A stretch of DNA of 64,000 nt, taken from assembly GCF_013167455.1 (NCBI RefSeq), contig NZ_CP038328.1; one strand, written 5' to 3'. Every line of letters starts with the position of its first letter. The stretch's first letter is position 1. Source of the DNA: Escherichia coli O157:H7. Its GTDB lineage: Bacteria > Pseudomonadota > Gammaproteobacteria > Enterobacterales > Enterobacteriaceae. Below, piece after piece: positions 20,101 to 23,100 of this stretch. A program made the position numbers.

Positions 20101-23100
20101 TAACCACGTAATCCAGTTGCGTGTCGTATCCGGTAGATCCAACGCTCATCGGTAGCGTGGTTTTTCGCTGGTGGTTTTTTTCTTCCGCCGGCTCTTTCCC
20201 GCGCACCCGTTCCAGGTATTCGCGCCAGTTCTCCCGCATATGGCTGTGCATCCCTTCGGGGTAATAATTCGCATCAGTTACACCCGCCGCCGCCAGCTTG
20301 TGCGCAATGGCATTAATATTTGATGGCCTGATGTGGCCTGCCTTGTACAGCCGGACACAATAGCGCCCCTCGTCGATGATTCTCAGTTCTGCCAGTTCAT
20401 CCAGTTGATCATCAGCCAGCACAACGGGAGGCACATTATCGCCAGCCAGTCGCCCGTCCTGTTCCTGCCACTGTTTCGCATGTGCCCAGGCATCACTACC
20501 CGCAAAAATAATGACTTCGGTCATCTTGTCGTAAGGCTGTTTTTTTAAGTTCGGTGCGCTTTTCATTTCTTGCCCCTGAATCCGTTAACCATGGTTTTCA
20601 GCTTCTGGATGTTTGCCCGTGCCCTGGCGTTGCTGGTGGGCACGTTATGCGGCGCGGTCTGTACCAGAGAAAAATCACGCCGGAACTGATAAACAGGCAT
20701 CACGCAATCATATTCGTAACCTTCACGGCGGTAGGTTACGCGCCGTTCTTCCACGCCCTTAATCATTACCGTGCCGCCGTACTGGTCGCGGTAAATATCA
20801 CCGCGCGTAAATTTAGGGTGAGTGTTGCCACTGGCAGTTAAGCCAGAATATTTAAGTTTCATTATTTTTATTCTCCGGTGTGCTGTTCTTTATATCTGTC
20901 GTGCAATAGATCTATTTCTTGCAGTTCCATTATTACAGGCTCAAGAAGCGTTATTAATGCCGTGGCAATTCTTGATTTTTGTTTGTCGCGTTCATTGTCG
21001 CCAAGTGTTTCAAGCCATATGCGCAATATTTCCATCATGTTTTCACTGTGAGAAAGTGCAAGAAATGCGCGGTCTATTGTTTGGTGGTAAATATCACGCA
21101 TGGCTTACATCCTCAGGAAATTTTCTTCTATAACGCGCCTCTGCCACATATTCCGCATAATCGGCGGCGATATTCAGTACATCAAGCCCCGTTGATTTAT
21201 ATTCTCTCGTGGAAAGTAAGAAAAAAGCCGCTCTAATAAGTTCTGGCATTGACGAAAGCGCATCAGCCGCATCATCAGGAACGCCGGAAAATTCCTGTTT
21301 CAGGGAATTAAAACGATCATCACGCATAACCCCCCCATTTTCACAATCAGCAATCAGGATAGCTTTGGCCTCATTCAGCGCCGTATCAGCACTAAATTGC
21401 ATGACAGCCAGTGAGTGAGGAACGAAAGCACCGGCATATTCTGTTTCGCTGGTGGCGTGCTTATGTGCCCTGTCCGCGATAACAGAAATATCAATCAGCG
21501 CGTGCATCAGCGTTTTGATGGCTTCGGCGGCTGCGTCCGGTGTGGTTTTATTGTGCATAAAGCATCCCCTGAATATTCGTGTTAATCATTCCGGCACGTT
21601 TTGTGATTTCCTGTAATGATTCCCTTGTGGCGACAATTGCTTCATCTGGTAAGTGGTAATTACACACCACGCGACCTTTATCCACATTGACCAGTAGCTG
21701 CCCTGTGAATTTCTCACGAAACTGAATGCGGTTAAGGTCAGTAAGTGACAGATTAATCATGGCGCACCTCCTGACGAATACGGGCGGCAAATACAGCAAC
21801 ACAACCGGACGGGCAACGGTTACGCGCTTCGCGTTCCGTCCAGGCGGTTACGTGGATGATTTGAGATTCTCCGGCACTCAGTGCCAGAAAACGCCACACA
21901 AAGGCCGTTTGTGTGTGTACAAGGTGTGGTATATGATTTACGGCAACCATAACGGCTCCTAGTTTACGTTGTTGGTTAGACGCCCCGTATGTGTTCCCAG
22001 CACTGCGGGGCGTTGATTTTTGTGTAATGGCAAGTACAATGGTAATTACCATGTAGGTATAGCAATAAAGGGTAATTACCATGTCAACACCATTAGAAAA
22101 ACGTTCGCCTCCATACCAAATGCGATTACCGGAAGACTTCAGAGCGCAGCTAGAAGAAGCTGCTAAGGCCGATGGCGACACATCTTTAGCCACTTGGATT
22201 AAACGCGTTCTCCGCAAAGAATTACAGCAACGCGGCATAGAACCCAAAGGATAAAAACTATCAGCGCCGTGGTGTGAGGTATTACGGCGCATTGCTATGC
22301 AGGACAACACAATGACCGATAAAGAATTGACCAAAACATTATCACCGGCACGGAAAAGACGGCGCAGAAAGATAGAGCATGAATCAGAAAGATTCGCGCC
22401 ATGTGCTTTTGCCCTTGAGCAATTCCTTAAAGAGTACAGGGAAACGCGCCCATTGCAGGTATGGCAACGAACTGAACCAGACTGATAGCATTGCCCACCA
22501 GCCTGATAGCGGCTATCATCCCCGTGCTTATGTTTGGGATCATATACACATAAGGCGCAGCGGGTTATCTGTTCAGAAAGGCGGCTCCATTTCGGGGCCG
22601 CTTTTTTTATGCCTGAAAAACCCCAATTTTGTGGTTTTCCAGTCTCACCAGGGCGAACGAATCCCCGCCCACGTTCTGGCGTATATTCAATCTTCATGGT
22701 TATAGCTCTGTGTTCAGATGATTGATGTGTGGCGGCTGTGTGCCGCCAGCGTGATTAATGAACTGCCTTGCAGCTATCCTTCCAGGCCAGAACCTCGGAT
22801 AAAGACCAGCCAACGGAACGACCGCCAAGTTTACGACGTGATGGGAATTGTCCGGCCTTTTCCAGGCGGTAGCGACACGTACGGCTAAGGCCGGTTAGTT
22901 TTTCGCATTCTTTTTCACGTATAAACCGATCAGTGCTTAACACTATTGCCCCCTTTCGTTTCTTAAAGAGTCATCAGGTGTCTTATTGTGTCGTATTGTT
23001 CCCGCTAGAGTGATGAATGGCAAATACTGAGGATGTATGATTTACAGAAAATGAAAAAGTAAGAATAAAATCTTTTAAATTCATGTTAATACAAAGGCAT

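Follow-up and report, generated by a model that had tools for sequence, protein, structure and literature searches.

What is the function of the five small genes that lie between the control region and the replication gene, rep, of a phage satellite integrated in the chromosome of Escherichia coli O157:H7? The locus falls within a window of 64,000 nucleotides of contig NZ_CP038328.1 (assembly GCF_013167455.1), the whole stretch of DNA analyzed here. A preliminary description of this window had presented the block as a run of uncharacterized, translationally coupled open reading frames (ORFs) without a recognizable motif, situated where satellites usually carry helper-interference, derepression or accessory functions. 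The placement of the block in a phage satellite, between the alpA/control region and rep, proved correct, and the satellite is a known element, O-island 51 (OI-51), the counterpart of the model phage-inducible chromosomal island (PICI) EcCICFT073. With a probability that we put at about 55%, the five genes form the early operon of a classical Gram-negative PICI of the EcCICFT073 type, which runs into rep and prepares the host when the island is induced.

Five coding genes in O-island 51

The 1.37-kb region containing the five genes matched dozens of complete O157:H7 and O145 genomes with 100% DNA identity, and a match to the gene block was present in about a quarter of the complete E. coli genomes (1462 of 5426). 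In the RefSeq annotation of a matching genome, the island occupies 11.3 kb between phoQ and roxA (ycfD). It carries, in order, an integrase gene, a gene for an AlpA-type helix-turn-helix protein, a partial 'Icd-like' pseudogene call, the Icd-like gene, three hypothetical genes, a DUF4222 gene, and genes for a RepA-family helicase, SSB, PerC, a major capsid protein, a head decoration protein and a small-terminase-like protein. Capsid, decoration and TerS-like genes are the only late genes annotated; tail and lysis genes are absent. An integrase at one end with a dedicated attB site, alpA downstream of int, a replication gene of its own, a size of about 10–15 kb and the absence of tail and lysis genes are the features by which Gram-negative PICIs are recognized.

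OI-51 has been described as cryptic prophage CP-933C of strain EDL933 and Sp7 of strain Sakai, inserted at the ycfD-phoQ site and of P4-like ancestry (PMC3378721). EcCICFT073 and EcCI042 were reported to correspond to it (Fillol-Salom et al.), and the same literature states that RgdR is encoded by all analyzed E. coli PICIs. The 100% match to O157:H7, the shared attB site and gene order, protein identities of mostly 85–98% and this published equation identify the island as OI-51/CP-933C/Sp7. A second candidate, the capsid-forming PICI EcCIEDL933, was rejected because that 15.4-kb element is not the same one and encodes a portal protein, a protease and TerL.

EcCICFT073 occupies the same integration site between roxA and phoQ and has the same gene order, with int, alpA, two reverse-strand small ORFs, an Icd-like gene, small genes, a 77-aa gene (c77), rgdR (c1493), a replication gene, ssb, perC, capsid and decoration. 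Besides the integrase and AlpA (Table 1), the proteins of the two islands share 97% identity for SSB, 97% for capsid, 98% for decoration, 87% for orf77 and 93% for RgdR. In contrast, the Icd-like proteins are only 46% identical, an unrelated gene, c76 (phrog_1478), stands in the place of orf70, orf154 is split into two 73-aa genes, and the reverse-strand ribbon-helix-helix protein is another one. The replication genes also differ, EcCICFT073 having a P4-type primase of 584 aa (CFT073 locus 5242-6996) and the O157 island a RepA-like helicase of 466 aa; the first ~125 aa alone are shared (62% identity), the remainder being unrelated. Where EcCICFT073 has the packaging protein RppA (144 aa), the O157 island encodes a 180-aa TerS-like protein annotated as 'terminase small subunit' (14638-15180), and the lack of a BLASTP match between the two indicates that the packaging-redirection modules differ. 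The downstream genes of EcCICFT073 are activated by AlpA, whose expression in turn requires the helper, and lambda and phi80 have been shown to induce this island, with its replication and its transfer at high frequency (PMC6092414).

The five genes (Table 1) are consecutive, head to tail, on the minus strand. The Icd-like gene and orf70 overlap by 8 nt (ATGATTAA), orf70 and orf154 by 11 nt, and orf154 and orf77 by 8 nt (ATGCGTGA); a gap of 5 nt separates orf77 from rgdR, and the rgdR stop overlaps the rep start in a 4-nt ATGA. A Shine-Dalgarno-like motif precedes each of the five starts, in agreement with the translational coupling proposed earlier, and the same five coding sequences were called by the Prokaryotic Genome Annotation Pipeline (PGAP) in identical O157:H7 genomes. 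The sizes originally given were accurate for the last three proteins (154, 77 and 99 aa). The first, given as 59 aa, had been started at 21932, an ATA codon, 6 codons off the start of a protein of 65 aa, and the 71 aa of the second included the stop codon of a 70-aa product.

All five ORFs are real coding genes, as shown by substitution rates, codon usage and PHROG membership. Alleles for the ratio of nonsynonymous to synonymous substitution rates (dN/dS) were taken from 80 related loci in IMG/VR, fetched by a search with the 99-aa protein, and the ratios (Table 1) show that purifying selection acts on all five genes, orf70 being represented by two alleles. In four genes (orf70, orf154, orf77 and the 99-aa gene), the codon-usage score was above zero and highest in the coding frame; the Icd-like gene scored near zero, slightly below an antisense frame. 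Each of the five proteins matched a PHROG family.

Table 1. Features of the gene block and its surroundings, with positions in the window
Feature	Position	Strand	dN/dS	Details
int	23308-24558			Adjoins roxA; site of EcCICFT073, 97% identical to its int
alpA	22755-22943	-		Upstream of the block; 94% identical to EcCICFT073 AlpA; phrog_2790
Stop-free frame	21753-22697	-		314 codons; ends in the Icd-like domain
Ribbon-helix-helix ORF	22081-22254	+		57 aa, Arc/YlcI-like; candidate regulator, divergent from the block
Palindromes ATGGTAATTACCAT	22039-22052, 22069-22082			Two perfect 14-bp copies, 30 bp apart; repeat search
Icd-like gene (first)	21753-21950	-	0.32	65 aa; ATG at 21950 behind AGGAG
Terminator-like hairpin with T-run	21895-21915	-		Inside the 5' end of the Icd-like gene, first 20 codons; consensus scan
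orf70	21548-21760	-	0.41 (two distinct alleles only)	70 aa
orf154	21094-21558	-		154 aa, acidic, all-helical
orf154 N half			0.29	
orf154 C-half module	21094-21327	-	0.32	Own ATG (M78); 90% identical to CFT073 c73b
Poly-G tract (G7)	21330-21336	-		Junction of the orf154 halves; length sets fused or separate state
orf77	20868-21101	-	0.40	77 aa, acidic, isoelectric point (pI) 5.1
rgdR (ECs1581)	20563-20862	-	0.26	99 aa; DUF4222 SH3/Tudor-like domain and basic C-terminal helix
rep	19166-20566	-		466 aa; RepA-like AAA_25 helicase, translationally coupled to rgdR

From a Kil-family protein to RgdR

The product of the first gene matched the NCBIfam model NF033153 (phage_ICD_like) at 64.8 bits against a cutoff of 25, as well as phrog_29966 and phrog_1743. 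The eta/kil ORF of phage P4, labeled 'cI' in the old P4 record, matched the same NCBIfam model at 73.3 bits and likewise phrog_1743. Judged by NF033153 and phrog_1743, which both proteins match, the PICI gene is homologous to the C-terminal domain of P4 Eta/Kil. The Kil protein of P4, which acts in cell killing, arises as a truncated in-frame product of eta, and the operon is protected from premature termination when eta is translated (PMC10111431).

The O157 Icd-like gene forms the 3' end of the 314-codon stop-free frame, and its real 5' limit is therefore uncertain; PGAP calls a partial Icd-like pseudogene at 22104-22697. The CFT073 counterpart of this frame extends over 428 codons (CFT073 locus 2767-4053), with an N-terminal segment that looked Bro-N-like by eye. 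Among 64 distinct islands, the median length of the upstream stop-free run in the Icd-like frame is 228 codons and the longest run has 498. When read from the same stop codon, the two other frames close after ~15–23 codons, a weak control because they begin within the part that codes for Icd. Family matches in the long frame are confined to its last 60 residues, the rest resembling junk, and two small opposite-strand ORFs, one for the ribbon-helix-helix protein and one of 62 aa, are annotated inside it. By analogy with P4, the long frame may be an Eta-like translated leader in which the 65-aa gene is nested like kil in eta, and, like eta, it may stay free of stops to permit translation-dependent read-through. 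No C4, isrK or CI-type RNA was detected, as no Rfam match at E ≤ 1 occurred across 13500-25000.

A block of ~245 bp at 22257-22503, over the 62-aa plus-strand ORF, is 97–98% identical across islands, and the control regions flanking it are ~85% identical or unrelated between islands. Substitution patterns in this most conserved block revealed codon-level constraint in no frame, and it may be a non-coding functional element.

The resemblance to P4 extends to gene order. The left operon of P4 consists of vis/alpA, eta/kil with the CI RNA, epsilon, orf151, cnr/orf106 and the alpha primase gene, which parallels alpA, the Icd-like gene, the small genes, rgdR and rep of the O157 island. The AlpA homologues are 45% identical, and in both elements an Icd-like domain ends the first ORF, nested in a longer stop-free frame. 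The two differ in the CI RNA of P4, in regulation logic (AlpA of PICIs is activated by the helper) and in their late genes, and homology to P4 was detectable only for AlpA, for the Icd-like domain and, in the case of CFT073, for the primase. P4 epsilon gave only short chance-level BLASTP matches and an hhalign probability of 3.5% for orf154, the comparison with orf70 and orf77 being by BLASTP only. P4 Cnr (ORF106, DUF5375) had no BLASTP match to RgdR or the other proteins and an hhalign value of 0.1% for orf154. Homology of orf154 to Cnr or epsilon is thus unsupported by hhalign, and Cnr shares with RgdR only its position just upstream of the replication gene, the Pfam domain of RgdR being DUF4222 and not DUF5375. 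Homology of RgdR to P4 ORF151 was also rejected (weak BLAST match with E 0.06; hhalign only 4%).

The icd gene of the P1 immI operon is a member of the same NCBIfam family. It encodes a small protein that heads an operon, with a translationally coupled downstream gene; the C4 antisense RNA lies before it and the antirepressor gene ant after it. C4 and ant are absent from the O157 block, and tblastn revealed no direct link between P1 icd and the O157 Icd-like sequences.

For the three middle genes, orf70, orf154 and orf77, we found no sequence match in Pfam, NCBIfam, PADLOC or PDB, no protein-level match in 50,697 phage records and no mention in the searchable literature; they occur only in satellite-type elements, and the whole block had no DNA match among phage genomes. 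A PDB sequence search with the three proteins, RgdR and a DUF4222 profile returned chance-level matches only. All three fall in PHROG groups of unknown function, orf70 in phrog_340 and orf77 in phrog_2196. The middle proteins are acidic (pI ~5), in contrast to the strongly basic RgdR.

Gene order across the 80 islands is mosaic but always runs from the Icd-like gene through an optional c76, the N-half, an optional orf70-like gene and the C-half to orf77, rgdR and, finally, rep. At least four small genes without mutual relationship (phrog_340, 1478, 9805 and 3672) can occupy the slot behind the Icd-like gene, the alternatives to orf70 having no Pfam domain, and a longer relative of orf70 holds an N-half-like segment, which points to module shuffling. 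A gene of the orf77/c77 type is a near-constant neighbor of rgdR, lying directly upstream of it in all architectures listed. Together with the N-terminal segment of rep, orf77 and rgdR appear to travel as one unit. The shared ~125 aa of rep carry no Pfam domain, and AAA_25 covers residues 148–315 (E 5e-43).

orf154 corresponds to two overlapping 73-aa genes of CFT073, with identities of 51% and 90%, and the two arrangements differ by a single G; the G7 tract found here yields the fused ORF, and G8 in CFT073 yields two ORFs that overlap at ATGCGTGA. Tract lengths in 37 distinct sequence contexts were G7 in nine, G8 in 14, G9 in 11, G10 in two and G11 in one, so that the halves are separate in ~70% of them. 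Protein databases accordingly hold fused (GGV, GGGV), split (GGGYA*) and frameshifted forms. Relatives of orf154 numbered 53 among 1.84 billion cluster representatives, many of them covering one half only, and many database representatives begin exactly at residue 78, just upstream of which the G-run could serve as a Shine-Dalgarno sequence. A fold search with orf154 disclosed generic helical hairpins only, and its halves probably form a helical-bundle heterodimer.

The 99-aa protein at the end of the block contains the Pfam domain DUF4222 (PF13973; E 3.4e-23), has a pI of 10.2 and includes R20-G21-D22 in its translation. ECs1581/RgdR is described as a protein of 99 aa with an RGD motif at residues 20–22, encoded by a gene left unannotated between z1841 and z1842 in EDL933 (PMC3378721). 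The gene is RgdR/ECs1581, matched by this published description and by location. Deletion of rgdR lowers type III secretion and adherence; the protein activates the LEE1 promoter in the enterocyte effacement locus (LEE) independently of Ler, represses motility and binds DNA with low affinity and no specificity, and homologues are present in strains without the LEE (PMC3378721). The CFT073 orthologue c1493 was reported to do the same and a variant from ED1a, R20C, to be inactive.

The RGD motif was intact in all 25 RgdR variants recovered. When RgdR was aligned with DUF4222 proteins of 59–70 aa from lambdoid prophages, at least 90% of the sequences shared R20, which fits the inactivity of R20C, and G21-D22 was specific to the RgdR clade; the critical residue is therefore an arginine of the whole family and not an integrin-type RGD. 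An AlphaFold model of RgdR (45 sequences; predicted local distance difference test score of ~90 in the core) predicts a five-stranded SH3-like barrel (residues 23–68) followed by a long basic helix (77–97). Fold searches with the model returned the generic SH3/Tudor/KOW class and uncharacterized DUF1653-like phage proteins, with no specific partner.

The neighborhood of rgdR is constant in one respect, as the ATGA overlap with rep was present in every junction variant found, whether with the RepA-like helicase or the P4-type primase. In PICIs, a DUF4222 gene directly precedes and overlaps the initiator gene with either of the two rep enzymes, and O-like initiator genes of lambdoid phages and prophages are preceded and overlapped in the same way. 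Prophages of Providencia, Enterobacter and related genera show the order cI, cro, cII-like gene, DUF4222 gene and an overlapping O-like (Phg_2220_C) gene. In two lambdoid phage records (ON470608.1 and MK416017.1), a 59-aa DUF4222 ORF lies between a cII-like gene and the replication gene O, overlapping the O start, by 11 nt in one of the two. Both records annotate a 'hypothetical protein' on the opposite strand (locus 3480-3659 in ON470608.1) and leave the DUF4222 ORF unannotated; the latter appears to be the real gene.

The lambdoid proteins resemble RgdR in their Pfam domain, in an Arg equivalent to R20 and in their location upstream of and overlapping the initiator gene. They differ in being shorter (59–70 aa) and only ~40% identical, in having no equivalent of the N-terminal 19 residues of RgdR, the G-D of its RGD or its basic C-terminal helix, and none has been characterized. 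We infer from this gene order that the replication module of these elements includes the DUF4222 proteins and that RgdR acts on the LEE and on motility only secondarily.

Remote-homology searches and structure prediction, which had been proposed as checks, thus assigned RgdR to an SH3/Tudor-like class and the first gene to the Icd family, and left the middle genes unmatched. The absence of motifs and of any characterization, as first described, applies to orf70, orf154 and orf77 but not to the 99-aa protein, a published regulator with a DUF4222 domain, or to the Icd/Kil-family first gene. The five do not all have well-characterized housekeeping homologues, and an accessory function fits RgdR, an experimentally shown activator of LEE1 and type III secretion.

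Control and probable role of the operon

Both copies of ATGGTAATTACCAT, plausible candidate operators for a promoter of the block, fall within the 130 bp that separate the start of the Icd-like gene from the divergent ribbon-helix-helix ORF. The protein encoded by the divergent ORF matched phrog_228, an Arc-like repressor family (E 1.5e-6), and NF041551 (YlcI_YnfO_N) at 18.7 bits, which is below the cutoff; in CFT073, PGAP names a YlcI/YnfO protein at the same position. The EcCICFT073-type island family is said to have no known master repressor. The terminator-like hairpin inside the Icd-like gene could be a chance occurrence, as eight terminator-like sites were found and 4.6 were expected from shuffles.

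As an early operon, the block would be expressed when a helper phage triggers AlpA. Family membership suggests that the Icd/Kil-type protein would arrest host cell division as the island is switched on, and the operon as a whole would ready the cell for island replication through a division block, reshaping of transcription or the nucleoid, and support or tuning of Rep; for the three middle genes, functions can only be inferred. RgdR, a basic DNA-binding protein with a predicted SH3/Tudor-like fold whose gene is always translationally coupled to the initiator, would contribute to replication, and its basal expression in an uninduced lysogen could account for the published effects on the LEE, type III secretion and motility.

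Several points weigh against this interpretation. A consensus scan disclosed no good minus-strand sigma-70 promoter for the block, and the transcription route is therefore not established; transcription could occur by read-through from alpA or from an activator-dependent promoter near 22090. What links RgdR to replication is gene order. O157 strains may carry no inducing helper, so the operon may rarely be induced, and the literature contains no experiment on these five genes in the satellite life cycle. The published sizes of OI-51, 14.93 kb in EDL933 and 15.46 kb in Sakai, exceed the 11.3 kb between phoQ and roxA in the window (13500-24777), although the published boundaries probably include flanking sequence. 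To our knowledge, division inhibition is described only for P1 Icd, to which the O157 Icd-like protein is only distantly related. For P4 Kil, the published description goes no further than cell killing (PMC10111431).

A prophage locus of ECOR61 suggests another role, which we regard as rather unlikely for the O157 block, namely that of a phage-triggered growth-arrest module (abortive infection or superinfection exclusion) in which the Icd-like toxin would be tuned by the small helical proteins and triggered by phage proteins. The ECOR61 locus comprises an Icd-like gene, two small overlapping genes and a linked primase gene. Growth arrest follows expression of the phage accessory gene orf24, suppressor transposon insertions hit the Icd-like gene and both small genes, removal of the Icd-like gene abolishes arrest and makes its product the likely effector, and all six linked genes, primase included, are needed (bioRxiv 10.1101/2023.04.06.535777). 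The P4 kil region behaves similarly with Abc1, and the swapping of unrelated small genes in the slot behind the Icd-like gene would be expected of arms-race loci. However, the ECOR61 effect was weak when reconstituted, and its proteins (Icd-like, 121 aa; small, 61 and 63 aa; Silas et al.) are likened to those of O157 by arrangement and by the Icd-like domain, the replication gene encoding a primase there and a RepA-like helicase here. Ten proteins, the five included, scanned against PADLOC-DB 2.0 gave zero families at E ≤ 0.01, and deletion of rppA alone restored lambda plating in EcCICFT073 (PMC6739421). The last observation also bears on the improbable proposal that the genes act on the helper, either by prophage derepression, like P4 epsilon, or by interference with helper reproduction. 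Their position is analogous to that of epsilon, orf151 and cnr between eta/kil and the P4 primase gene, they are restricted to satellites, and the interference screen of EcCICFT073 covered genes downstream of ori only, so that those upstream of ori were never screened (PMC6739421). Yet the rppA deletion fully relieved lambda interference, with titers near those of the island-free host (PMC6739421), which leaves little room for a major lambda-interference function in the block. Moreover, no homology of the genes to epsilon, ORF151 or Cnr of P4 was detected, and in Gram-negative PICIs it is the helper that induces the island, by way of AlpA, whereas the reverse is not known (PMC6092414). Helper interference and derepression, both raised in the preliminary description, thus found no support.

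We consider it equally improbable that RgdR is a virulence 'moron' kept for its effect on the LEE, with the other four genes as decaying remnants of a cryptic P4-like prophage. OI-51 was originally called a highly degraded cryptic prophage and deletion of rgdR alone reproduces the type III secretion defect (PMC3378721), and the poly-G tract gives frameshifted variants in many strains. This view is at odds, however, with purifying selection on all five genes, with the same block in the mobilizable EcCICFT073, with RgdR homologues in strains without the LEE and with the linkage of DUF4222 to replication genes in prophages of several genera. More speculative than the early operon, and doubtful at present, is the view that the block is a compact host-takeover and growth-arrest cassette of interchangeable parts. 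Such a cassette would combine a Kil/Icd toxin domain behind a leader kept stop-free to allow translation-dependent read-through, its protein sequence being of no account, with a hot-swap slot into which small effector genes are exchanged and with a helical protein in two parts that the hypermutable poly-G tract switches between fusion and separation. Its last part would be a Tudor-like DUF4222 factor by which, in satellites and lambdoid phages generally, replication initiation is coupled to transcription or the nucleoid. If so, the LEE and motility effects of RgdR would be a side effect of the DUF4222 element.

Elsewhere in the window, the region beyond potB (29779-40125) has a low GC content (29–42%) and contains insertion sequence fragments and type III effector genes, among the latter EspK at 29779-31140 and a 1133-aa EspN-like ORF at 33785-37186. 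A high-GC block (56–59%) with long minus-strand ORFs at 43000-57000 looks like another prophage or island.

Meaning for RgdR and for satellite biology

Both the element and its best-known gene have been published before, RgdR being characterized experimentally only as a host regulator, and current understanding is not overturned by our analysis. What the analysis adds is context, in that it connects the Icd-like gene with P4 Kil/Eta and DUF4222 genes with replication initiators, assigns RgdR to a fold class, and describes the poly-G switch between fusion and split, the hot-swap slot and the unusually long stop-free leader frame. OI-51 affects the colonization of ruminants by O157:H7 through RgdR, and the native context of the gene, as the last gene of a probable satellite early operon, alters how its virulence phenotype is read. 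That rgdR is always ATGA-fused to a replication gene suggests a replication or takeover factor of a mobile element that moonlights as a regulator. For PICI biology, cheap and well-defined targets are available in the three genes that nobody has studied, in the poly-G switch and in the long leader.

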